From positions 58,218,001 to 58,282,000 of the forward strand of contig NC_092354.1 of NCBI RefSeq assembly GCF_963676685.1: 64,000 bases of DNA. Reading direction: 5' to 3'. This DNA is from Mytilus edulis. Taxonomy: Eukaryota. The notes beneath the pieces are model-generated. The model ran no database searches, had not been told where the DNA came from, and saw nothing but the letters and a program-made list of their open reading frames with translations. The position numbers and the translations under genes are program-made. Positions 8,182 to 60,043 of the stretch are shown piece by piece; position 1 is the first letter of the stretch; the number at the start of each line of letters is the position of its first letter.

Positions 8182-10010
8182 TTATATATACACATTTTTA
8201 ATAATGCAATTTTGGAGAAGGTAACCCGTAAAATAGCCCCAATCGCCACTTATAGTTTGCGATCCTCGGCCTGGATAATGACGCACTTTGACAACATCTC
8301 CCTTGTGCAGATATATTACGGCATTCATCGATCCTGCATTTGCTCCACCGCTTGGTGCATGTCCTTTCGATATTTCGCTGCTGTTCTTTACAATTTGAAG
8401 ATGTAAAGATGTACCTGTCTGTAGAAATGTACAGGCAAAGAAGTATATTCCATCAAAGGGTGCTGTGAAATGACCCGTGTGTTGGTTATATGCTTTACCA
8501 ATATTGGTTATCACGTGATCAAAAATTACAGTCTGTGTCGAACCAAGGGTTACTTGTGGAGTCAATCGTGCATGAAAGGCAACTTTATTGGAAGGAATCG
8601 CTGAACCTGCTATTTTAAAAAAATTAAAAAATCAACGGTTGTATCCACTTCTGATGCATACATGTCTTATTCACATCAAGTCTAAATTAAAAAAAAAATT
8701 CATACTTGTAAATGTATTTAGATGTATGTCTTCTTTTATGAATTATAATTATGTGATATTTGCTCTACTCTTGAATTGTTTTTATATATTTCAATTTTAT
8801 TGGAATATGTCCTATATCTAAATTTATATAATGTATTTTTCACAATAAATTCTTTTGTTACACATTATTTAAAAAATTACAACTGGGAATTTTATTGTGA
8901 AAACTTAAATTTGGTCAGTCTTTCAAAAATCACATTCTCAATATTGTTTAGTGACTGAAAACTGTATGCATAACTATTTGTTTTACTTCTATAAAACATT
9001 TAACTTACTCTCTCCAAGAAGTCTGTTGGTTCTCTGAAGAGTATCAATTGCTTCTATTACTGCTGCTTTTGCTTTACCTACAAAATATACAATAAACTCA
9101 TGATAGATACCAGGATTGCAATTTTGTATTGGCGCCAGACGCTCGTTTAGTCTATAAAAGACTCATCAGTGACGCTCAAATCGAATAATTTTGAAAAGTC
9201 CAAATCAAGTACGACGTAAGAGCTTTGATGACTTAAATTCAGAAAAAGTTTATCCACATCCCATCCAGCTAGAGGTTAGATTAGATTATTGTGAATACAA
9301 TATACTTGATCTGTACCATTTATAATTCAGACCTGTTGCAAAATAAATAAAATGTTTCAGAGCTATGACCATCAAAGATGAGTGATGTAGCAGGATGAAA
9401 TTCCAATTAAACATGTTAGCAAAACAAATTAAATAGTCGTTATGTTCAAACAGTGAGTAAATAATTAATCTTTAACCAGAAAAACATCTTTCAAATCACA
9501 TTATTATGTAATATGGACGATTACGATTTTGCGCTTAATAATTTAAGAAGAACTCATACGTTATATGTAAGATAAGATAAGACAATTTATTTTAAGTCGG
9601 GTTATATAAAATACTACAAACATAAGCTCTGTAGAGCTTTTGCCGACTTTAATAACAATAACAACACATAAAATATTAAGACACATAAGACAGATACAGC
9701 ATACACAATAGACAATATAAAGACAGCTATATTGTATAAGCAAAGGTCATATATATAAATCAAGCACAAGCAGGTAAAGCACTACACTAGATTATAAGCA
9801 CATGCACAGCAGACAAATAAATAAGATGAGCTATTTCTAAAAGTCAGGCCCATTGTCGTCATATTGACATGAAAAACACGTATATCATTATTATGTAGAG
9901 AAACGCAGCTTGGACTACTTACCAATTTTTCGGCAACAGTCATCTCCACCATAAACATATGTAATACTTATGCATGTTATAAACAATAGGCTAATAAAAA
10001 TATACTTCAT
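8182..10010 (-). CDS. Secreted C1q-domain-containing protein (C1qDC), copy 1, 193 aa, three exons
   Basis: complement(join(8182..8606,9009..9077,9923..10010)); all introns GT-AG, phase 1; signal peptide MKYIFISLLFITCISITYVYG, DDCCRKI, short helix GKAKAAVIEAIDTLQRTNRLLGES, gC1q motifs VAFHA..VIFDHVITNIGKAYNQHTGHFTAPFDGIYFF..LHKGDVV..FTGYLL; AATAAA at 8050-8045. Confidence 0.93.
9131..9177 (-). ncRNA. Type I hammerhead ribozyme with mutated core (GAAA to TAAA), in intron 1 of C1qDC copy 1
   Basis: Minus strand reads gagcgtca-CTGATGA-gtct tttat agac-TAAA-cgagcg-TC-tggcgcc. Confidence 0.75.
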
Positions 10011-14560: not shown

Positions 14561-15810
14561 CAACGCATCGACTATGTATAAATGCATGTGTGTGGACATT
14601 TTGTTTCCAAGCATTTTTTTCTCCTAGCTACATATTAATGCAAGATATTTGAAGAATTAAACAAATATCAAGTATTAATGACAAAAATATTTACAAAAAA
14701 ACCGAGGTACAACTAGTGTGTACGGCAATGACCGAAAAACGCTGTATGCTTTCCAAATGTTTTACATACAATCTGCAAAATTTGTTGAATAAGACAAAAA
14801 ATGACTCTCACTTGACCATCACATTAACTAAAAAATAAGTTCCTATTCACAAGGAGTTACAATGATCTGAATTGTTAAGCACGTCAAACAATTTATCGAT
14901 TAAACCGCTTACTGATTCAAAGACCCTGTGTTACCTTTCACTTTATTTTTGTCATGTTTTAAAATCCTGGATTTCAATGCGAGTTCTGTTGTTCATAGAC
15001 ATATTTTGTGTGCTGTATTGTTAAGTGTTGGTTTGTGCTTGATTTGGCTTTTCGCTGAGGTCTCTCTTTTTATCCTACTTTAGGTAACTGTAAAAACAAT
15101 AGACTACTTTGAGACTGGAAAGTAAAATGTTCACATTTGAAATATCAAAAAATAAAGTTAAAAAACTTCATGTAAATTTAGTCGGAGTTACTACTGTCAT
15201 CAATGAGAAATCTGAGTACCGGTGCGTTAAAGAGGGTGTGTATCACAGTTAAGCGATATAGATAAAATATCCGGCTATTTATCCAAAAAATAATATTCAA
15301 AACTAATCTATTTACTTAAAAATATATGATAAATTATGTCTTTAAATGCTACTATTTAGTCCTACATTCCTTTATTAATCGCATATAATCGTGTATGCGT
15401 TGCTGTAATCCTTGTGTACTCATGCAATACTCTACTTACAATACTTTGTACCACTGCATACTGTCATCCCAATTCTGTAAAAATCAAAACAACTACTAGA
15501 AACTCTTTGGCATTTATAGTAAAACCTCTTCTAACAATTCAATGTATCAAAGCATAATCTGAGTTCGATAACACTTTATCGACATCGTTCCATGCATTTT
15601 TTTTGCCTAAGATGCATTTTCTGACACCCTGTTACCACGACATCAAAAATGTGCTCATGTAAAAAATAAAAATACAAAAATGTTGAAATCAACACTGAAA
15701 ACGCCAATAAACATCAAGCTATTATACCTTATAATATTAATACTTTCAACAATTTAGAAAAGAAAAAAAACACACACGTGAGTGTTACCAAGGTTTAAAA
15801 AAAAAACACT

Positions 15811-16102
15811 TAAGGAATGACTTTCATAATTTTTCTGTCTATGAAGAAATAACATAAAAAGTTTGGTGCACACAGAATAACGCGTGTACCGGGTTATTAA
15901 ACAGTGTGCACCACATTTTTTATGTTATTTCGAATAGACAGAAACATTTTACAGTCATTTCTTATAATTTAAATCTTGATTCCATTTTAAACCGTAGAAA
16001 AACATGAAAAAACGTTGAAGACGTCACGGTCACTATGTCTGTCGGCTGATAACAAAATAACGTCAGCCAATCAGGAGACGCATTACATCCAAAATTAAAT
16101 TA
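15811..16102. mobile_element. Non-autonomous Crypton-like element with terminal hairpin
   Basis: ~150-bp imperfect hairpin 15811-15965; absent from the paralogous site at ~26163 (aaacactaggttatg). Confidence 0.75.
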
Positions 16103-16103
16103 T

Positions 16104-16560
16104 TAGGTTATGTTGGTTTCAATATAGAATTATGCATTGTATATTGGCGACAAATGGTGTATTCTTTAAAATGAACCTTGTTAATTGTAATGTGTGTACA
16201 CTTTCTAAGAAGAGGCAGAAACTATAGAAAACTTACTTTGGGGTTTTCATTTTGTGGCGCACATTTTGCACAATCTAAATTTATGGATTTTTGATATAAT
16301 TCATATCGAAATTCCACTAGAATTGAATATTTTCAATTTTGGGTCTATGAATATTATAAATTGAATTTTATTTAAAATAAAGTTATATGATCAAGTATTT
16401 TATTTGCAGATGCGAAATGCAGGACCTCATGTAAAAGGACTTCAAAATTACATAAAAGAAAACTTGATTTTAGAGAAACATAGTTACTCAAAACATTCGA
16501 ATGTGGAAGAATACAACTCGTACTGGAACTCTTGTGCTAAGGTGATTGTTTTAATTTAAA
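16104..16560 (+). mobile_element. Degraded L1/Tx1-like LINE ORF2 C-terminal (zf-RVT) fragment; paralog ~26165-26680
   Basis: LCWFQYRIMHCILATNGVFFKMNLVNCNVCT..EAETIENLLWG resembles the zf-RVT consensus FQYKILHRILxTN...CxxC...ETIEHLFWxC. Confidence 0.6.
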
Positions 16561-16849
16561 TGAGGTAAATACATATACATATGTGTGTATATGAGTATTT
16601 GAAAGTATTTGTATACTGGTATACAATAAAAATAAATATATTTTGATACCTATAAGTTTTTGCAGAAAAAAATAAACTAGAAAATTTAAAAAAAAAAAAA
16701 CAACACAAAACTACAAGGAAAATTCAAAACGGAATGTCTCGTATCAAATTGCAGAACCAAAATTATAAACGAATGAAAAACAACTGTCATATTTGCCTTT
16801 CCTTACTTTGATCAGACATTTCCTTATGCAACAAATGTCGAAATGCATT

Positions 16850-17214
16850 TAAGAATTGAATGCTGCTTTTTGTAAATTTATTGGGGTGTAAAAGCGTTAA
16901 CCGAAGTACATTTTGTATGAAGCGCGGAAGCGCTTCATACTAAAAATGTGCGCACGGTCACGCTTTTACAACCATATAAAGTTACAAAAAGAAGCATTCA
17001 ATACTTATAACTACATTTTTTTAGCTAGAATCATGAAAACACGATTTTTATCAAGTTTTCATTTAATTTACCTGTGCACTTTATTGTGGGGCCTCGTGTC
17101 ATCATGAATGATAAATGTTATTGTCTAATACAATTGTTTCAGGAATAGCACGTGATGTGCAGTTAGCCAATCAGAATAACGTATTATAATGAAACATACA
17201 TCTAATGTAATTAT
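16850..17214. mobile_element. Non-autonomous Crypton-like element with terminal hairpin (second family)
   Basis: Hairpin ~16850-17008 centred on gaagcgc-ggaa-gcgcttc; empty site at ~27276-27285 (gcatttagtt). Confidence 0.8.
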
Positions 17215-20923: not shown

Positions 20924-21321
20924 TTAGAGAAGATAACCCGTAAAGTAGCTCCAATCGCCATGTATAGTTTGCGATCCTTGGCCAGGATAAAGACGCACAC
21001 TGACAACATCTCCCTTGTTCAAATATATTACTGCGTTCATCGATCCAGACGCTGCTTCACCACTTCGTGCATGCCCTTTTGATATATCGCTGCTGTTCTG
21101 AACCATTTGAAGATGTAGACGTGTACTTCCGTCCTGTAGAAATGTACAGGCAAAGAAGTACATTCCATTAAAGGGTGCTGTGAAATGACCAGTATGTTGG
21201 TTATATGCTTTACCAGCATTGGTTATCACGTGGTCAAAAATAACAGTCTGTAACGAACCAAGGGTTGTAGAATGTACCAATTTTGCATGAAATGCAACTT
21301 TACTGGAAGGGATCGGTGAAC
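20924..21321 (-). CDS. C1q-domain terminal exon, copy 2 (intact ORF, no cognate upstream exons found)
   Basis: Acceptor gtagcag|GT at 21321, phase 1 as in the paralogs; SPIPSSKVAFHAKLVHSTTLGSLQTVIFDHV...YFTGYLL*. Confidence 0.85.
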
Positions 21322-21635
21322 CTGCTACCAACAAAAAAAAATCACTAATATAGTGTTATTAAATGGTTGTTTCTGTATTGCTGCTGTTATAGATACGAGG
21401 TTAGCTGTTTTGGATCCGAGACTCGAAGAATCGAGAGGAAATACAGTTAATCGAATATCTTTGAAAGGGCGAATACAGAAACAGCCTTTTCATTACACTT
21501 TTATTAAATAATCTTAATTCTTCAATTAAATAAAGCAACTTACATGGAGTTGAGGAAGTTACAGAAATTCCTTTTTGAACTTGTCTTTTCACATGTGTGA
21601 TAGATTTACATTTTCAGTTGTATTCTTTGATTTCT

Positions 21636-24700: not shown

Positions 24701-25897
24701 TGATCTCCAACGCCTCGACTATGTATATATGCATGTGTGTGGACATTTTGTTTCCAAGCATTTTTTTCTCCTAGCTACATATTAATGCAAGATATTTGAA
24801 GAATTAAACAAATATCAAGTATTAATGACAAACATATTTACAAAAAAACCGAGGTACAACTAGTGTGTACGACAATGACCGAAAAACGCTGTATGCTTTC
24901 CAAATGTTTTACATACAATCTGCAAAATTTGTTGAATAAGACAAAAAATGACTCTCACTTGACCATCACATTAACTAAAAAATAAGTTCCTATTCACAAG
25001 GAGTTACAATGATCTGAATTGTTAAGAACGTCAAACAATTTATCGATTAAACTGCTTACTGATCCAAAGCGCCTGTGTTACCTTTCACTTTATTTTTGTC
25101 ATGTTTTAAAATCCTGGATTTCAATGCGAGTTATGTTGTTCATAGACATATTTTGTGTGCTGTATTGTTTAGTGTTGGTTTGTGCTTGATATGGCTTTTC
25201 GTTGAGTTCTCTCTTTTTATCCTACTTTAGGTTACTGTAAAAACAATAGACTACTTTGAGACTGGAAAGTAAAATGTTCACATTTGAAATATCAAAAAAT
25301 AAAGTTAAAAAACTTCATGTAAATTTAGTCGGAGTTACTACTGTCATCAATGAGAAATCTGAGTACCGGTGCGATAAAGAGGGTTTGCATCAAAGTTAAG
25401 CGATACGGATAAAACAGCTGGCTATTTATAAAAAAAAATAATATTCAAAACTACTGTATTTACTTAAAAATATTATGTCTTTAAATGCTACTACTTAGTC
25501 CTACATTTCTTTATCAATCGCGTCTAATCGTGTATGCGTTGCGGTATTCCTTGTGTACTCATGCAATACTCGACTTACAATACCACTGTATACTATCATC
25601 CAAATTCTGTAAAAATCAAAACAACTACTACGAACTCTTTGGCATTTATAGTCAAACCTCTTCTAACAATTCAATGTATCAAATCATAATCTGAGTTTGT
25701 TAACACTTTATCGACATCGTTACATGTATTGTTTTGCTTAAGATGTATTTTCTGATATCCTGTTACCGCGACATCGAAAATGTGCTCATGAAAAAAATAA
25801 AAATACAAAAATGTTGAAATCAACACTGAAAACACCAATAAACCTCAAGCTATTATACCTTATAATATTAATACTTTCAACAAATTAAAAAAAAACA

Positions 25898-26163
25898 ACA
25901 CGTGGGTGTGACCAAGGTTAAAAAAACATACACGTGGGTGTTACCAAGGTTTAAAAAAACATACACGTGGGTGTTACCAAGGTTTAAAAAAAAACTTACA
26001 CGGGGGTGCTACCAAGGTTTAAAAAAACATACATGTGGGTGTTACCAAGGTTTAAAAAAACTTACACGGGGGTGCGACCAAGGTTTAAAAAAACATACAT
26101 GTGGGTGTTACCAAAGTTTAAAAAAAACATACACGTGGGTGTTACCAAGGTTTAAAAAAACAC
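25898..26163. repeat. Minisatellite, ~33-bp unit, 8 copies
   Basis: Unit acacgtgggtgttaccaaggtttaaaaaaacat; single copy at the paralogous site 15774-15810. Confidence 0.92.
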
Positions 26164-26737
26164 TAGGTTATGTTGGTTTCAATATAGAAGTATGCAAGTT
26201 GTACACTTTCAAGGAAGAGGCAGAAACTATAGAAAAGTTACTTAAGGGTTTTCAAATTGTAGCGCACATTTTGCACAATCTAAATTTATGGATTTTTCAT
26301 ATAATTCATATTGAAATTCCACTAGAATTGAATATTGTCATTTTTGGGTCTATGAATATTATAAATTGACTTTTATTAAAAATAAAGTTATATGATAAAG
26401 TATTTCATTTGCAGATGCGAAATGCAGGACCTCATGTAAAAGGAAGGTGATTACGTTCATGTAATTATCTATCTGCTTGCTATATATATATATATATATA
26501 TATATCTTAACTGTTTATCTAGTTATATGTGTTTATAATTTTGTAGTTTGTTATAAAGCTGTATAAAAGAAAACTTGATTTTAGAGAAATATAGTTACTC
26601 AAAACATTCAAATGAGGAAGAATATAACTCGTACTGGAACTCTTGGGTAAAGGTGACTGTTTTAATCTAAATGAGGTAAATGAATATACATATTTGTGTA
26701 TACGAGTATTTGAAAGTATTTGTAAACTGTTATACCA

Positions 26738-27062
26738 ATAATTACATTAAATGTATGTTTCACTATAATACGTTATTCTGATTGGCTAACTGTACATCAC
26801 GTGTTATTCCTTAAGCAGTTGTATCACACAATAAAACTTTTCATTCATGATGACACGAGGTCCCACAATAAAGTGCAAAGGTAAATGAAATAATAACTTG
26901 ATAAAAGGCGTGTTTTCATGATCCTATAGGTAAAAATGTAATCATAAGTATTGAATGCTTTTTTTTTTGTAACTTTATAGGGGTGTAAAAGCGTTGACCG
27001 AAGTACATTTTGTATGAAGCGCGGAACCAATAAATTTACAAAAAAAGAACATTCAATTCTTA
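26738..27062. mobile_element. Non-autonomous Crypton-like element, same family as 16850-17214, opposite orientation, partial hairpin-arm deletion
   Basis: Reverse-complement match to 16850-17214; empty site at ~16624-16635 (caataaaaat). Confidence 0.8.
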
Positions 27063-28705
27063 TAAAAATAAATATATTTTGATACCTGTAAATTTCTGCA
27101 GAAAAAAATAAATTAGAAAAATAAAAAACAACAAAACAAAACTACAAGAAAAATTCAAAACGGAATGTCCCCTATCAAATTGCAGAACCAAAATTATAAA
27201 CGAATGAAAAACAACTGTTACATTTTCCTTTCCTTACTTTGATCAGACATTTCCTTATGCAACAAATGTCGAAATGCATTTAGTTACAAAATGATGACAT
27301 GCATCATGTTTATGTTTATGATATGAATCATGGTAATATAAAGGACGTACTTCAAATGTGATTTGCATGATATTTCTTATAATAAAGACCTTTACTAAAT
27401 ACAGGTCGGTGTGCAATTCTTCCAGAAATAGTTTGAGGCCATTAATATCCTACATATCGAAACGACTTCTCTCTAAGTGAAAATATTCCGTTAATAATAG
27501 CCATCTTCCTTGTTTCATCGAGTATTAAATCAACAGATATTGCTACCTTTACTAGTTTCTTGTAGAAGCGAGCATATTTTAATCGATGTATGTTCATGTT
27601 GGATGGTGCAAGTTTGTTTAGTTTGTACTCACATAAAAAGGGATGATGCTAATAAAGTACCCAGCTGATACAATTTTTTTGTTGTGGTGATGTATAAGTT
27701 ACCTCCCACGTGCACTCTGTCTTATCTTAAGTATATTGATTGGATATGCCTCTTTCAACAGAGTTTTAGTTTGTTCTTATGCTGAACTGTAACACCAAGC
27801 TTCAAACCACAACGATTTCCCTTTGTTCGTGGTCTAGGAATATAGTTTCCAATAATTATATGGGCTTTGTCTTCCTAAGTATTCTGTCTACTGTTTTATT
27901 TAAAATATTTACTATGTAAATGGTCCTATCAGCTGCATAAATATTAAAAAATATAAAACATGTGGAAAAAAATTATTGTTGAAAGTGAAAGTAGTGATTT
28001 GGCCAAAATGAAAGTAAAAAAGAAATAGCCGTCGTCATTTATTCAAGATTCAAATCCTACCATGTTATTGGGCTCTCAAAAAGAAAAAGCTCGGATGGAT
28101 TGTCCTGGAATACTTATATTTTTTTAGAATAATAATAGTCTAAAAGAAATAATTTATTTCATGTTTAAAGCGGTGCAAATTATTTTAATTTAATAATTTT
28201 TACGAAAAATGCATTGTAGCCAAGGGAGAGAAAAATTGTTGTCTCAGGCCCCCACTGTCCCATGTCAAAGGAGGATTAGTTCCTTCAAACGTGTTTAAAC
28301 CTGTAACACTTTGAATGTGCCAGTCATAAATAAGGGGCCTGTAATTCAGTTGTTGTGATCTGTTGCCGTGTAACATACATGTTTTTGTTTTTCGTTCGTT
28401 AGTTTATACTAATACAATTTGGAGTTAGCTCCTTGGTGAAGGGCGTATGGTGACCTACAGTTGGTAATTTTTGTACCATTTGGTCTCTTATGTAGAGATT
28501 TTTTATAGGCAATCATTTCCCATATTTTTTTATATTAACACAGTTGTACGTTTCCACAACAGAGTTGCGAAAGATAGCAGAGGGACAGTCAAACTTATAA
28601 ATCGAAACTAAACTGACGACGCCAAGGCTAAAAAAGAAAAAGATAGACAACCAATAGTCCACAAAATACAACATAGAAAATAAGGACTAAGAGACATGAA
28701 CCCAA

Positions 28706-29441: not shown

Positions 29442-30888
29442 TTAGATACGGTAACCCGTGAAGAAGCTCCAATCGCCATGTATTATTTCTGGTCCAAATC
29501 CAGGAAAATGACGCACTTTGACAATATCTTCCTTGTGCAGATATACAATTGCATTCATTGCCCCTGTCTGCGATCCGCCACCAGATGCTGCGTGCCCTCG
29601 TGATATCTCGCTGATGTTTTTTACCATTTGAAGATGTAATACAGTTGCATTATATGGTCTAAGAAATGTACAGGCAAAGAAGTAAATTCCATCATAGGGT
29701 GCTGTGAAATGACCCGTATGTTTGTTATAGGCTTGACCAATATTGGTAATCAACTGATCAAAAATTACTGTCTGTCTTGAGCCGAGGGTTATATACGGTT
29801 TCAATCTTGCATGAAATGCAACTTCAATGGAAGAGATTGGAGAACCTGCTTTTATAATTAAAAGGAAAAAGAAAACAATCAATGTTTGTACAATCTATGT
29901 AATCAATTATTGAACTAAACTACATGACTTAGTGGTTGTTAACAGCTTGTTTCACGATGTTTAGTTTTCCTTATGTTTGAGTTGCTGTGTTATCTATATG
30001 TCTGTTGTTAAAATCGGTGGAACGTTTTGTATTTCTACGTCAGTAACTACTGATGATTATCGAATACTTCCATTTACGTATTCTTACTTAAAGACTAAAA
30101 TGATTTACTAGTCTAAATGAATAAATTCCATTTAAAATTATGAAATTTAGACTGAGTATAGATTTATATAGCAGGATACACTTCAAGATGATGCTTATCC
30201 TGTTGTCGCACACTGTTTCGTTTGTTTTGATATTTTTATTTACAAACGCTTTACCGAAGAATTTTATGGAATTGACTTTCAAGCTGCTTGTTCTATCAAT
30301 AATCATATTTTGCTGATTGCTGTGAACATTGCTTGTGTTCTCTTTATATTTTTTTATAAAAAAAATCATCTTGCTAAAACTTACTCTCTCCAAGCAGTCT
30401 GTTGGTTCTCTGCAGTGTATTAATTGCCCCTAATAATGCTGCCTTAGATTTACCTAAAATAAGATGATTTTTACAACATTTGTGTGTAAACTTTCATACC
30501 TGGCCTCTACAATTGAAGCTTCTAATACAATATATTTGTAATATTACTTTGAACTCTTAGTCAGCATCAACCCTTAATCAATGAAACCAGGATATGGAAT
30601 CGTTATAGGAGAAGCCAATAGTACAAAGACATGTACAGGTCATAAAAACCAGTTTCAAACGCACAATGTTCAATCAAAAAATAAATATGTTACTTTTGAC
30701 AAGATACTTTTCTATCAACCTAAGAAATAATTTAAAACTTATGTTGTAGACTACAGATGGCATTTCTTTGATTTTAAAATGAAAAAAATCAAACAAGTCA
30801 AGTACATACCAATATTTCGGCAACAGTCCTTCTCACCATAAACAAGCAAAATTGTACCGAACAGTATGTTAATATATAGGTTTCTCAT
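29442..30888 (-). CDS. Secreted C1q-domain-containing protein (C1qDC), copy 3, 183 aa, three exons
   Basis: complement(join(29442..29845,30385..30453,30810..30888)); GT-AG phase 1 introns; MRNLYINILFGTILLVYG-EKDCCRNI-GKSKAALLGAINTLQRTNRLLGES, then gC1q VAFHARL...TGHFTAPYDGIYFF...FFTGYRI*. Confidence 0.93.
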
Positions 30889-45060: not shown

Positions 45061-45663
45061 TCACATTACTACATAAAATATTATTTGTTTTATCAAATAT
45101 GACGAAACATTAATATCATGGAAGATTGAATACCTTTTCCGAACGACTGCGATCACCACCAGTTTTAGGAAGACAAATGAGGATTCATACATAACAATGT
45201 AGGTTTTTCTGAACTGTTTGTCTGTCTGACTTTAAATTTTCACTTTGATCATGGTGTTATCCGTGTTTCTGTTTTACATGCAATTGAAAATAAACCCCTG
45301 TTATCTATCTGAGAATAATAAAAAAAAATCTTTTTCAAGTTACTGCATATAAAATTCTACTATTGGTGAAGTTCTTTCCTTCCTACCTATTTGAAATATA
45401 TATTTATAACAAAACAAAGTCGCCTAAACATTTAAGACATTTTCGTTGGCTTATTTGTATGTTGCAACTAACAAATAGATACTGTAAAACTATCACTTTA
45501 TAATAGCTTAGGAAACCATCGAAAAATATAAGCCTCAGTAAATGTTTACTTACATTTGACAATGTAATTATTGATTTATCTGTATATACATGTATTAACA
45601 TAATATTTTTTATTATAAATAGAAGCATACTACATACTACAATCAGTTAATACGAATTTCAAA

Positions 45664-46482
45664 ATGAATTTGCGATGTTCACAAGTTTTGGCTTTGGCTT
45701 TGTGTTTGTGCATGTTGTTTCTAACTTTGTTAAATCACTTCTTACACTTGCTCCCTGGTTATTTGATTAACGTTAAAGAACAATTTGGAAACACACCATA
45801 TGTGCCTCGGATACTACATTTCATATCAGTTGAACCGTTTTTGAAAGATAACGATACGATTTTAGAAGATGTGAAAAGTATAATTGATGAGTGGAAAAGT
45901 ATACACGTAAACTATCAAGTTATAGTGTGGACAAGCAGTAAGATAAAGCATAAGTTTTCAAAACTAGCAAACCTTTTAAAGAAAATACCAAATCCATCAT
46001 GGATATCTGATATTGTACGTTTTAAAGTTTCGTACGAGTATGGAGGTTTGTATTTAGACACGGATATACGGGCCATTAGATCAGTTGAACCTTTGTTAAG
46101 ACAGTTTAAATCAGGATTCGTAGTTTGTGAACAACCAAGAATAAACAATTTATTGATGGAAGTGCCTTGTGATGCGATAGGCACTGCCGTTATTACTTCC
46201 AACAAAAACAGTATATTGATGAAAAGACTATTTGAAAAAAGTGTAAGAGTAACTCAGAAATATTTACATTCTATAGAACCTAATAGATTGTCTTCTTTCT
46301 ATCGACGTACAATAATAACAGGTCTGTTGACAAATGTTAATAAAAAGTCAGATATTCCAGTCATCGGTTCTATTACATTTTATCCTTGTGATTGGAGTGA
46401 TCGATCAAAATGTGTCTATGAACAGTTTACAAATGGCAGTAAAAACATTTATGCAATGCACCAGTGGAGGAAACGATGGTAA
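45664..46482 (+). CDS. Intronless GT32-family (OCH1/Gly_transf_sug-like) DXD glycosyltransferase, type II membrane protein, 272 aa
   Basis: N-terminal TM segment; VPRILHF; W-x3-H-x-NY-x4-W; SDIVRF..YEYGGLYLDTDI; C-terminal FYP..W and YAMHQWRKRW; start context aaaATGa. Confidence 0.88.
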   Translation: MNLRCSQVLALALCLCMLFLTLLNHFLHLLPGYLINVKEQFGNTPYVPRILHFISVEPFLKDNDTILEDVKSIIDEWKSIHVNYQVIVWTSSKIKHKFSKLANLLKKIPNPSWISDIVRFKVSYEYGGLYLDTDIRAIRSVEPLLRQFKSGFVVCEQPRINNLLMEVPCDAIGTAVITSNKNSILMKRLFEKSVRVTQKYLHSIEPNRLSSFYRRTIITGLLTNVNKKSDIPVIGSITFYPCDWSDRSKCVYEQFTNGSKNIYAMHQWRKRW

Positions 46483-47670: not shown

Positions 47671-48817
47671 TACATATTATAGGTACTGAAAGATAGGCAA
47701 AGGATACCAAAAGGACTTTTAAACTAATGTTCGGTGGAAGCCAAGGCTCCGTATTGAATGTCATACTTTGACCTATCAGTGTTAACGTTTTATACATTGG
47801 GACTTGAATGGAGAGTTGTCTAACTGGCACCCATACCATATCTTCTTGTTTATATACTAAGTCGAAAATAAACTGACAAAGTCATGGCTAAAAAAAAAAA
47901 AAAAAAAAAATACAGACAAACAACTGTACACAAAATACGACATAGAAACCCAAGCCTAAGACTAAGCATCACAAACCCCACTAAAATTGGGGGTAGTCTC
48001 AGGTGTTCCGAAAGGGTAAGCAGATACCGCTTCACATGTGACAACCGTTATGTTGTTCGTATTAGCACAAACTAGGTGTGCAGTCTAATTCAAATTAAAG
48101 AACATTAAAACACGTAGTTAAGATGAGTAGCAGCGGCCCATCCCTTTCCCTCCGAATTTGACTTTCACGAATAAGACTTGTCACCGAGTTTGTGATTTGA
48201 CAGCCTTTATATTTTGATATATAAAGTAAACAAATACGTGGGGAATGGCCCTATCCCTTTCTTTACAAGTTTCAAATCAGTATTTAATGAGCAGTCTTAA
48301 AAATTAATTTAGACCTTCAATTGCATCTTTATGAACTGAATACCGACACAATTATTGTATTGACATAAATTTTGATATAAGACGAACTGGACATAATGCT
48401 TCATTCTTATAAAAAAAAAACTTACAATCATTTGCCGAACAAAAACAAGTAAAGAAAGAACTAGTCCTTTCTTTTCTTTTTTTGGCGATTACCTGATCAC
48501 TTAAAATTTTGTCTACTAAATGATATAAATTTTTAAAAGCATCTTAAATTCACAAACAACTTTCATTTCCGTCAAATTATTGCTTTTGAGCGACAAGTAT
48601 GCTAAATTTCAAAATAGAGGCTGAAAAAAGGAACGTGTTGTTTTTTTACATAAACATTTTGTGTTTTAGTAAACAAACATTTACCTTTTCAAACTTCAAA
48701 CAAAAAATGCAAAAAAGTGTTGCTTGTACTTTATTGCCTATATCTGTATATTTTATAGTTAAATATATATATATATATAAGATTGTTGGGTTGATGTTTA
48801 GACGAGTTGTATACTAT

Positions 48818-51800
48818 GGTATTATTGCGTAACAATTTTCATATTGGCTTAGTTATAGGTCCGAGGGTACCATATTGGCCTGAGGCGAAGCCGAAGGCCA
48901 ATATGGCTGCCCGAGGACCTATAACTAAGCCAATATGAAAATTGTTACGCAATGATACCTTTATTAATTAACCAGTCCAATATGAACTCTAGCCGGGCCA
49001 ATATGAAGATTGAAAATAGTGTGAAAATCTGACATTCAGGACTTCAATAGTAGTGATTTGAATATGTATCAATGAAAATTGAGGATTTTAATCAAAACAA
49101 TAAAATAGTAACAATTTTATTAAATAATCAACAGTAAATAAACACAACAAGTAAAAAACATGTTTTTATCTAGTTTTCAGATTAAAGCTCTTGGCTGCAG
49201 TTTATAGTATTCTTTCTTTCCCCTGAGTATATGTTAATATTGAAAACACCACCTGTTATAGTTGCACCTGCAAACATGGCCATTGGGTTGTCATGTTTGT
49301 TAGCAGTTTGATTATTTGTATTTGATACATTTGCATTTAAATTATTATGAACTAATGTATTTGAGTTTGAAAGTTCACAAGGTTCCTCTGAATCTGATGT
49401 CGTCTGTAAATCTGAGTTCGGCAACATGACCTTAGATATTGTGTGAGAAGCTTGTTGCTGTTGTTCAATAGACGGTACTGAATAATGAGTTAAGGTACTA
49501 ATGCCTTTCCAGCCTCCTAATTGAGCAACTTCATTGGCAGGTCTACCATTTTGAAGTAGTGTGGTAGCAAAAGTTTTACGTCCCGAATGATTAACCTTTC
49601 TTCCTTGAAGATCTCCTTTTTCTGCCATATTTTTTACCATTTTACCTAATTTATCTTTGCCTATGGTTTGGCGAGTGTACCATATTTCCTCATGTTTATT
49701 ATCTAAAGGCCTCAAATAAAATCTATGTTCATCAGTTAATGTGTCTTAAGGTCTATGCCGTTTGTATTCCTTGTAAACATGAATAGGGCAATTACTTCCT
49801 CCTTCCCCGAAAATCTTTGGCGTAATATCCCGGAAATCCCTGCTTTTTGCTCCACTACGGGTTTTGGTGCTTCTTTCTGAAAAAAGTATGCTTATGTCAA
49901 TATTTAAAGAAGAATTATCCTTCCTGTCTGTACAAAACTTTCACTTTTATATAACAAAAAACATGTATTGCATAGTAAATAATATTTTGTTAAATATAAA
50001 ACAATGGTTAATATCCTTAAAAGCACAAATTACCAACTTTTGTCAGGACTGTTGTACATGTACATCCATTATCCACAGAAGTATATATTCTGTGATTTCT
50101 AAAAGATTTAAAATATCAACTATTTAAATGATGGAAATCATAACATAATCTCACCATTAAATTCCAAATACTCCTTTCCATCAGATGTAGCTTTTAACTT
50201 GACATCTCCCCATGTCATGTTAACATGGTCTTGTCGACCTCGTACATTTGTCGTAGACCAAAGTATGTTGCATTATTTAAAAACACAGCATTCAGTAATG
50301 CATCAGGGTTTTCTGGAAAAAAAAAAGAACTTAACTAAAATACATGTATCTTAATGTAAATATCCAACTTAAAATAGTATTTAAAGGACAAATACTGTAT
50401 CAAAATGCAAAAGACCTCTGGAGACACTCTCATTGTTCAAGACCTTATGTGTATTTTAAACATTTTTTATTACAACCATTTAATAATCAGGGATGGATAG
50501 AGGGCGACAAGGAAATAAAATAATTTGTTTGCCACAAGGTTAGAAAAATGTTTAATTAAAAGTTACTGACTGACACGCTGGAATACAACATTTTTTTTTA
50601 AACTTACGTGTTCCAATAACGCCTTTCTCCCTCAAGATTTGGATTTCCTCAGTCGTCAAAGGTTCAGCTCTGTTTGGCTTACTGCCCTTGCCCAATGACT
50701 TTAATGCCTTTCGCTTCGCTTCTAATACCCGTCTTGTGTGGTTGAACTCAGGATCCTTTTTAATACTGAAACATTAAAGAAAAGATATGCATAATATCTG
50801 ACATGTAATTTTTGTATGTACATGTTTTATACTTATAGCAAAGAGAAACCAAGGAATATTCATTGTACACAAGCTTAAGATCATCAAAACCACATTGACC
50901 CAGATGATATATATAGTTTTTACCAAAAAAAATGACACAAGGCTAAAATTAAAATATTGGCACTGAATATTCGAGTCATAATGCTTGACAGAATAATGCA
51001 AAGGCTATCATGCTATATCAAGACAAGGGAGTTACATGTCTCACAGATATCAAATAATCTACATGAAAATAATCGTACCTTATACTACTTTTTGAGTCCT
51101 TCAAATGTCTATCCAAGCTGTTGAACATAGAGGATAAAGAGTCAGGCTCATATTCGTCACCATTTTTCTTCAGGACTCCAAGAAAAAATCTTGATAACAG
51201 ACTGTCCAAGTCTTTGGCAGGTATTTCCACTGAATCACGCATTTCTCCAACAGATATGAAAAAATCCAGCATCACTTTCAAGTCACTCTTTGTTTTAGTT
51301 TTTGTGTTCTTGTTAACACTTAAAGCTAGAAAAGAGTCAGTGTCTTCATCAGTGACAGAGCGAAACCTCTTGCTACTCGAGCTATTTTCTTTGTCTGATT
51401 CGTCAATCTCATGATTCTGTGCATTTTCAATGTCCTGCAGAATTTCATTTGGGAAGTTGAAATTCGCTGAATCAACTTCTTCCAGAATCAAATTTCCTTC
51501 CCCATTGACATCTGCGAGATTTCTCTTGATGTACTCTGCCTCCCTATTAGATAAATCGTCGTAGTGAAAATAGTCTTCAACTAACGCATCCATCGCATCA
51601 TCTATATTTTTTATAGAGCTATTGCTCCATCGTTTTGTTGTCATTTTCTCCTGTCAGACGACACTAGCCGTAGTTCTCTAGAGTTATCGGGATTTCAACC
51701 GATTAGTCTAGAGCTAATCGAATATGCTAATATTGGGCTTGCTAAACCCGGGCCAATCCGTATTGGCCTTATAGGACAAAATTATCGATTTGGCAGTTTT

Positions 51801-51839
51801 ACTCGTATTTAGTCAAATAAGCTCCAGTTAATTAATAAA
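48818..51839 (-). mobile_element. Crypton-type tyrosine-recombinase DNA transposon, near full length
   Basis: 142-bp terminal hairpin 48818-48959, 13-bp inverted repeat 48960-48972/51827-51839, internal spliced YR gene. Confidence 0.85.
49182..51644 (-). pseudogene. Crypton tyrosine recombinase (DUF3504/KCTD1-QRICH1-ZMYM-like), four exons, two lesions
   Basis: Exons 51644-51079, 50765-50608, 50312-50155, 49876-49182 (GT-AG); motifs KKNGDEYEPDSL, LEAKRKALKSLGKG, FGLRG, ERSTKTR, CPIHVY, NHSGRKT, GGWK, THYS; 11-bp insertion at 50240-50250 and TAA at 49748-49746. Confidence 0.9.
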
Positions 51840-58134: not shown

Positions 58135-60043
58135 CAAATCTAGATCACCCTCTGTGAGCTTTGATGACCTTCTTTCACATCTTCATCATCCACTAGGGTT
58201 ACATTACATCGAACTATTCTCTTTTCACTGCCAGTTAATTTTCTTACACGTTTGAGAGATTATGCACTTGACAAAGGAGGCACCAATACATGTTCTGCAA
58301 TATACAGACTAGTCAGTATTATTTGTGATGTAGCTCTTTTCCGTCTTTTCAAACCAGTAAGAACGGAACCTTTACACGAGGAAAAGAGGAAATTCCTTCC
58401 TGTTGATTTTGCCAATAGAGGAATTGATGCGATCAATATCTGCAACGTTCTACATCACAAGGAGGTAACATCTAAAATTCCTATATATTTTCAAAATCAG
58501 TCTGTTCCTATTGTATCCTACAGTTACACCAAAACCATTGCATCTAAAATATTTAACTATAAACAAGCATTGCAGGACCTTGACTTAGAACAATACACAA
58601 AAAATCCTCCGACATGTGACTATTCCCAATCGCCTTATAATTACAGCCCCTCTGGTCATGTTATAAATGGGGATCTAAACATAATTCAACATGAAAATCT
58701 CCGAAAGGTGATTTCTTATGGTCCTAAGTTTAGAGAACCCCAACACATCAATTAGAACCAAAACTTCAAAATAATTATGATTTTCATTGAGGACTACACC
58801 AGAGCATGGGCTTAGCGAGAAGAAGTTGAACTGAACACTTTGTCAGAATGGGTTAGAACTATCAGGTTTCTGATAAAACGTCGCATTCACAAGTTGAAAA
58901 ACTGTGTGAACGATCGACCAAAGTCTGTTTTCAGAGACAATGAGGCCATGAAATGTCTATCATCTCTTCATGATAAGTTTGTTGTTGTTCCTGCGGACAA
59001 AGCTTCAAATAATATTGTCTTTGTATGTAAATCGTATTACTACGAATGTCTTGTAAAAAAATTAGGTATAAAGGAGCAATCAGGTTATCCCACATACAAA
59101 GCCATATCATTTGACAAGGATGAGATTTTAGCAAATCATAAGTTCTTCATGGCTTCAATAAACATTACATTAACACCAAATCGGAGGACTTACCTTGTTT
59201 GTATTGGATACCAAAGCTTCAAAAAATTCCGTACAAACAACGGTATATTGCTGGCTCATCTTCATGTTACACAAAAGAATTGTCCATTAGATTGACTAAA
59301 ATTTTGTCCGCAGTGAAAAAGGGTCTTCAGAAATATTGTGAAACTGTTTACTCGCGTAGTGCTATTAACCATATGTGGATTCTTAAAAATTCTAAAGAAC
59401 TTCTAGACAATTTTAAATCTCGGTCTTTTTCTGAAATTAGTTCTATCAAAACTTTTGATTTTTCAACCCTGTATACCACCATTCCCCATGTGAAATTGAA
59501 AAATCACCTTACAGAAATAATCCACAATGCCTTTCAACATAAAAATGGTAGCATACGCTATAAATTTATTACTTTGGGATTTCATAAGACATATTTCGTT
59601 CATAGTGACAAACAAAAAGGTAAAACATGCTACACAGAAGAACAAGTGGTCAGTATGCTGGAGTTTCTTATCGACAACATATTTGTTGAGTTTGGAGGTA
59701 GACTTTTCCAACAAATTGTCGGCATTCCTATGGGAACAAACTGCGCCTCTTCTTGCCGACCTCTTCTTATTTTCTTATGAATCGGAGTTCCTCCAGACAC
59801 TTGTCAAAACAAGAGGATCAAAGAAGCCAGATTATTTAATTTCACTTTCAGATATATTGATGATGTTCTTTCCATAAACAATCCGAACTTTTCTGATTGG
59901 GTTCCATTAATATATCCCCCAGAACTAGAGATTGAAGAAACAACAGACACGGCTTCCTCCGCCTCGTTTTCATAGTTATATCTTGAATTTGACTTACACA
60001 GTCATCTCAGTACCAGAATCTATGACAAACGAGACGAGTTTCA
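58135..60043 (+). mobile_element. Penelope-like retroelement ORF (RT), truncated and frameshifted
   Basis: GPKFREP, VVVPADKASNN, YWIPKLQKIPYKQRYI, SIKTFDFSTLYTTIPH, GIPMGTNCA, FRYIDDVL. Confidence 0.9.

Follow-up and report, generated by a model that had tools for sequence, protein, structure and literature searches.

The window, by which we mean the whole 64,000-nucleotide stretch of Mytilus edulis DNA analysed here (assembly GCF_963676685.1, contig NC_092354.1, positions 58,218,001 to 58,282,000 of the forward strand), contains two short gene-less elements, termed E1 and E2, and a longer recombinase-coding element with the same layout, termed the window Crypton (Table 1). E1 and E2 lie in a block at ca. 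12.8–17.7 kb that is duplicated at 22.5–27.7 kb with 90–94% identity. One copy of this block carries a 33-bp minisatellite of eight units (25889–26162) adjoining the empty E1 site, while the other copy has one unit. Elsewhere, the window contains three tandemly duplicated exons on the minus strand (8182–8631, 20924–21355, and 29442–29894) that presumably belong to C1q-domain genes, a 287-residue frame on the plus strand (45619–46482) that we take to be glycosyltransferase-like, and a broken reverse-transcriptase frame (58168–59780, plus strand), which we assume derives from a Penelope-like element.

Table 1. Mobile elements, their structural parts and empty insertion sites, in window coordinates.
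Feature	Position	Strand	Remarks
E1	15810–16103	+	294-bp copy of a gene-less family (typical copies ca. 305 bp), TTAAG...TTAT
E1 terminal hairpin	15812–15963	+	first two T unpaired
E1 internal inverted copy of right end	15964–15974	+	directly after hairpin
E1 CCAAT-type motif	16064–16074	+	37 bp inside right end
E1 right end	16093–16103	+	pairs with 15964–15974
E2	16849–17214	+	366-bp copy of a second gene-less family, TTAAG...TTAT
E2 terminal hairpin	16851–17006	+	
E2 internal inverted copy of right end	17007–17017	+	one mismatch in window copy
E2 CCAAT-type motif	17164–17174	+	
E2 right end	17204–17214	+	
Empty E1 site in duplicated block	26160–26169		insertion point between 26163 and 26164
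E2b, independent older E2 copy (86%)	26738–27061	-	hairpin partly deleted (internal), no TT at left end; its site empty near 16625
Empty E2 site	27274–27285		insertion point between 27279 and 27280, gap 0
Window Crypton, CryptonA-type element, same layout	48815–51838	-	hairpin 48818–48959, internal copy to ca. 48972, far end 51826–51838; four-exon tyrosine recombinase gene, minus strand

Both short elements had been recognized in a sequence-only reading of the window; alignment of flanks shifted their boundaries from 15811–16102 and 16850–17214 to the positions in Table 1 and established that both families start with TTAAG and finish with TTAT. No terminal inverted repeats were found when copies were compared. 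The species' own genome (1.37 Gb) yielded 1,631 first-look candidates for the E1 family and 3,462 for the E2 family, and the 40 scored in each case were full length (88–100% and 97–100%, respectively). The E1 and E2 copy sets used below consist of the 30 top-scoring copies among thousands, with a few incidental additions, and are thereby biased toward intact left ends, whereas score selection hardly affects the window Crypton set. The description of E1 and E2 as unrelated holds for their interiors, which share no significant likeness, but not for the ends, the internal copy, and the CCAAT region, which are alike; a global alignment of the two scored 20, whereas doublet shuffles averaged −40 (sd 14) and none of 300 scored higher. 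The older copy E2b is inserted ca. 220 bp from the paralogous E2 site. At another locus (L091, 350–1450), three different E2 copies follow one another head to tail, each having inserted at the right end of a neighbour. Since these tandem copies differ from one another (84–97%), we read them as serial insertions and rejected a concatemer.

The hairpins of E1 and E2 are each ca. 155 nt long, and an 11-nt inverted copy of the far end follows directly. Terminal hairpins of about 150 bp and internal complements of the joined ends had been proposed from the letters of the window, and both were borne out: folding z-scores reached −9.3 (E1) and −12.0 (E2) relative to dinucleotide shuffles, and 10 of the 11 internal letters match the far end. 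Random genomic 11-mers matched as well in 16 (E1) and 10 (E2) of 20,000 draws; when the AT-rich end itself was shuffled, the counts were 707 and 82 of 20,000. Across the families, at least 20 of the 23 junction letters are kept internally in 29/32 E1 and 36/37 E2 copies. As the elements start with TTAAG, their joined ends have two T beyond the internal copy, which appear as a 2-nt bulge in the predicted folded circle. Circular folds of the hairpin-first strand close the junction with this bulge in 25/32 E1 and 31/37 E2 copies; those of the opposite strand close it in 23/32 and 31/37. The strand preference is weak (energy gap 2.6 kcal/mol for E1, 5.3 kcal/mol for E2) and counts against a single-strand reading, as do linear folds, in which the right end pairs internally only in 13/32 E1 and 23/37 E2 copies. 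The linear fold of the window's own E2 did not pair its right end with the internal copy. E2b, without the TT, speaks against a bulged junction. That families unrelated in sequence nevertheless retain the combination of hairpin and internal copy suggests a putative function for it. Hairpin loops, for example at 48885–48900 in the window and at loci L190, L201, and L239, contain recurring GCGAAGC-like words and G·A-rich internal loops.

Both empty sites that the sequence-only reading had located in the duplicated block were confirmed, whereas its suggestion of insertion at a duplicated A/T core was not: the empty sites instead show blunt insertion with nothing duplicated. A fixed target site duplication was absent, with 0–2 nt of flank duplication in 28/32 E1 and 36/37 E2 copies. 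We compared filled with paralogous empty sites for 4 E1, 7 E2 (tandem self-junctions excluded), and 3 Crypton insertions, and a script returned a gap of 0 in 1, 5, and 3 of these, respectively. The 5/14 comparisons with another gap count against blunt insertion. They include the E1 site of the window, which was scored −3 within an A run and is gap 0 by eye; the four others, off by −6 to +6, involve diverged paralogues or local deletion. The right flank equals the empty-site sequence in gap-0 cases. E1 is missing, at the same position each time, from contigs of four DNA sequencing runs, and E2 from one contig.

With one duplicate site dropped, the landing sites follow the pattern Y-A-N ^ W-N5, N-T-R, i.e., a six-base spacer after the insertion point. 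T occupies position +8 in 29/32 E1, 32/36 E2, and 13/16 window Crypton family sites (background 0.35; p 8e-11, 1e-11, and 2e-4), A occupies −2 in 30/32, 33/36, and 14/16, and a purine +9 in 27/32, 30/36, and 15/16. The target spacer is free save for A or T at +1 (30/32, 34/36, and 16/16). T at +8 recurs in 20/24 sites of 12 further recombinase-coding families, a set limited to ends confirmed by homology between copies, with a right end ending in AA and two confirmed loci dropped. Positions −3/−2 and +8/+9 are thus symmetric (A−2/T+8, Y−3/R+9) around six bases, which fits the definition of tyrosine-recombinase sites as two inverted binding domains around a 6–8 bp spacer (PMC4792948). The landing sites have tyrosine-recombinase geometry with a non-homologous spacer, against which counts that E1's own left end has A rather than T at +8. 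The first five letters of the element are fixed in 29/32 E1, 35/37 E2, and 16/16 Crypton copies; full repeats of them in the right flank are confined to two tandem junctions and one further site. A non-tandem E2 flank (L055) that starts with TTAAG counts against the single-exchange reading. Because donor and target spacers are unlike and yet show no mixing of coupling sequences, the pattern is unlike the footprint that two staggered exchanges would leave. The right-end TTAT resembles the left flank Y-A-T, a direct repeat of 3–4 letters that is shorter than the 4–6 described for Cryptons (PMC3212892).

The product of the window Crypton matches PF00589 and, more weakly, DUF3504 and QRICH1. Its family comprises ca. 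16 copies, full or deleted, that are near-identical and agree in their ends, and its three introns are spliced in RNA contigs (all three in one study, two in another); it is a young, expressed family. Relative to RNA and DNA contigs, the window copy has insertions of 11 bp near 50240 and 1 bp near 50591 and is therefore probably frameshifted. The residues R, K, H, R, H, and Y are invariant in 12/12 aligned recombinase proteins. A predicted recombinase model (pLDDT 78.7) matched Cre best (Z 19.2, rmsd 5.3, 298 aligned), followed in order by XerA, QRICH1, XerH, and integron integrase (Z 14.3, rmsd 6.2, 265 aligned; model residues 217–232 unresolved). No circle joint of the window Crypton was detected in four runs, mostly contigs; contig-level runs and genomic tandem copies cannot separate circles.

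Among recombinase loci, a strict score for hairpin plus internal copy was passed by 37/141, compared to 12/141 decoys, a modest signal at the level of a single locus. Of these loci, 119 fall into 35 multi-copy families, whose ends were defined by homology rather than hand-curated per family; both structural ends coincide with homology ends in 26/48 structure-positive loci of such families, and end and internal copy change together from one family to another. A motif-free structural scan was too noisy for family counts.

A CCAAT-type motif, previously assigned to E1, E2, and the window Crypton alike, is present in both short elements (in E2 as TAGCCAATCAG), but it is not common to the window Crypton, inside which there is no CCAATCAG. 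CCAATC lies ca. 40 bp inside the 5′ end (within 70 bp) in 12/12 loci of families 16, 23, and 25 and in 0/107 others. The motif of E1 has the same position as in this one clade of recombinase-coding elements, where it is located 5′ of the gene, and is likely a promoter remnant. Families 16, 23, 25, and 19 group with locus L229 at a local support of 0.93 in a tree of ca. 95-residue fragments (38 rows, one per family), and family 19 has the left end TTAAG. The right ends of E1 and E2 rank the CCAAT-bearing group first among 243 end regions, with best z-scores of 5.7 and 3.7; a z of ca. 3 among 243 regions is weak singly and counts against this assignment. Likeness to a single end of E1 or E2 was found in L229, L318, and families 16, 19, and 25. 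The hairpin end of L229 matches 15 of E1's first 16 letters, a match as good as which occurs at 1/400,000 random positions (7,301 tested). This recombinase element (L229, 5300–6910) with its E1-like left end is cut off upstream by an LTR retroelement.

The end sequences suggest an affinity of E1 and E2 with the CCAAT-bearing CryptonA clade, and not with the window Crypton, and the partner enzyme likely belongs to that clade. The window Crypton is an improbable partner, since its end words differ and it has no CCAAT motif. BLAST of E1 and E2 against 161 recombinase loci, a sample of several hundred candidates (140 loci of ca. 9.7 kb, the window element, and 20 loci of 3.7 kb), revealed no autonomous element that has the two ends of E1 or those of E2. 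Strong matches at L155, L237, L231/232, L279, L292, L306, and L215 were whole or cut-off short copies inserted nearby, and that at L316/L317 (2279–2499) was an E1 variant with a shortened hairpin in an intron of the recombinase gene; all were rejected as partners. Two independent links, the target geometry common with recombinase elements and the end likeness to one CryptonA clade, support the initial assignment of E1 and E2 to non-autonomous Crypton families, and we are highly confident that they are non-autonomous CryptonA elements.

For their movement, we lean toward a mechanism in which E1 and E2 would be transferred as a folded single strand by one strand exchange. Its basis is the observed ends, blunt insertion, target symmetry, and a layout and target rule common to many recombinase-coding elements. 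Tyrosine recombinases cut at the edge of the spacer and leave a free 5′ end on the spacer side. In the predicted fold, the internal copy would pair across the joined ends and leave the TT bulge, which would build a recombination site with a bulged spacer. The enzyme would then cut at the left edge of the 6-bp spacer, on the strand that starts with the hairpin, and with a cut at this edge the hairpin-first strand would be the donor and the exchanged strand. One strand exchange with a double-stranded target would follow, a second exchange being impossible, and replication would resolve the junction, as described for attC (PMC8946536). To excise, the element would take this step backwards on extruded or lagging-strand DNA; a single-stranded circle would be released, and replication would then leave one daughter filled and the other empty. 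No circle or single-stranded form was observed; this counts against the scheme, as does the absence of an element with both ends of E1 or E2 from the 161 recombinase loci. More generally, we propose, with a probability of about 0.55, that animal CryptonA elements are self-encoded eukaryotic single-strand recombination systems that splint their own ends into a bulged recombinase site, use a single exchange to insert the hairpin-first strand into nearly any Y-A-N-N6-N-T-R site, with no need for homology of the spacers, and provide a fold that thousands of gene-less copies exploit.

The main competing explanation accepts E1 and E2 as non-autonomous Cryptons but has them use the classical route, i.e., excision of a double-stranded circle and two strand exchanges, with the hairpin and internal copy providing accessory sites for binding, a signal for replication, or a terminator. 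A classical double-stranded circle is the published proposal for Cryptons (PMC3212892), the target geometry would suit any tyrosine recombinase, the predicted fold most resembles that of Cre, a classical enzyme, and an end copied internally in inverted orientation also amounts to a binding site in double-stranded DNA. Yet the ends are unmixed despite the unlike 6-bp spacers, and the internal copy spans both ends in junction order, with two letters missing exactly in the spacer, which would be needless in a plain binding site. We consider the classical route unlikely, while taking it seriously. Considerably less probable is that a rolling-circle HUH enzyme moves E1 and E2 as non-autonomous Helitron2 (Helentron) elements. 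They fit the Helitron2 definition in outline, namely no target site duplication and short asymmetric inverted repeats of 8–15 bp, the subterminal one directly before a terminal hairpin (PMC3627910), but these repeats (11–12 bp here) are the only one of four Helitron2 end features found. The subterminal repeat lies ca. 155 bp from the end instead of 20–30 bp, the hairpin being far longer; no 5′ hairpin covers the other repeat (none in E1; −2.6 kcal/mol, z 0.25 in E2); and the 5′ base is A, not T, when the element is oriented so that its hairpin is 3′. The symmetric target and the end sequences common with recombinase-coding relatives also differ from Helitron2.

An internal region complementary to both ends, a tyrosine recombinase, and no target site duplication are features of DIRS elements with ITRs and ICRs (PMC8969392) as well. 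E1 and E2 could accordingly be short retro-elements that borrow a DIRS reverse transcriptase and recombinase, transcribed from the CCAAT motif and with the internal copy as a DIRS-type ICR splinting the cDNA into a circle. We regard this as more doubtful still: E1 and E2 have no ITRs and no reverse transcriptase, their ends had no match in 30 PF00589 loci with 1.5-kb flanks, and Cryptons of the same layout have retained their introns in dispersed copies that are nearly identical. Size and copy number would agree with ordinary DDE MITEs or fold-back elements, but this least credible of the alternatives is contradicted by missing terminal inverted repeats, the 0–2 nt flank duplications noted above, and gap-0 empty sites.

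The closest described systems share parts of this picture. CryptonA elements and their non-autonomous derivatives (Kojima and Jurka 2011, PMC3212892) have recombinase-only partners with DUF3504/QRICH1 likeness, no terminal inverted repeats, no target site duplication, abundant gene-less derivatives, and a short likeness between one end and the target. In the available text of that paper, however, animal Cryptons are without terminal repeats and a circle model is cited, in contrast to the long terminal hairpin, bulged internal junction copy, and defined symmetric target described here. Integron cassettes (attC x attI; PMC8946536, PMC4792948) resemble E1 and E2 in a predicted folded single-strand site with unpaired letters, in the single exchange with replicative resolution that we infer here, and in insertion at the end of earlier copies, which creates head-to-tail stacks. 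E1 and E2 differ from them in being eukaryotic, in assembling the site from both ends and an internal splint, and in their dispersed targets; an adaptation of the enzyme to single-stranded DNA, as in IntI, is hypothetical here. CTXphi, integrated by XerCD, likewise uses a folded single strand that imitates a double-stranded recombinase site, but relies on an enzyme of its host, integrates at a single fixed site, and lacks extrahelical bases (PMC4792948).

In the literature searched, we found no description of this layout in Cryptons; Repbase Reports, subscription journals, and supplements lay outside its coverage, and Additional file 1 of PMC3212892, in which the termini of elements are listed, may affect the novelty. 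The word "hairpin" does not occur in the available text of the Glomhopper paper (PMC13465315), and that of a curation guide (PMC8969392) names only short direct repeats for Cryptons. The way animal Cryptons move has so far been without demonstration, and the defining paper, in its available text, found no terminal repeats (PMC3212892). Our results suggest that Cryptons likely integrate as a single folded DNA strand, in the manner of bacterial integron cassettes. With the ends defined exactly, a rule for the target, a prediction of the donor strand, and expressed enzymes that are catalytically complete by their residues, Crypton movement becomes directly testable. If the proposal is true, structure-guided single-strand recombination, so far described for integrons and CTXphi, would be common in animal genomes, the layout would offer a way to recognize and classify many unclassified repeats without target site duplications, and the enzymes would include a candidate recombinase for the insertion of single-stranded DNA that needs no homology of the spacers.

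Several recombinase loci depart from the common arrangement. At L184, L186, L206, L221, L234, and their relatives, the hairpin is 5′ of the gene, the reverse of most families. Recombinase genes at L233, L197, and L276 have a hairpin on each side and appear to be head-to-tail stacks of related elements. Chimeric 0.85-kb derivatives (L082, L078–L081) carry the ends of the window Crypton around the body of another hairpin element, and at L082 the insertion adjoins that element's internal copy, which serves as the target.
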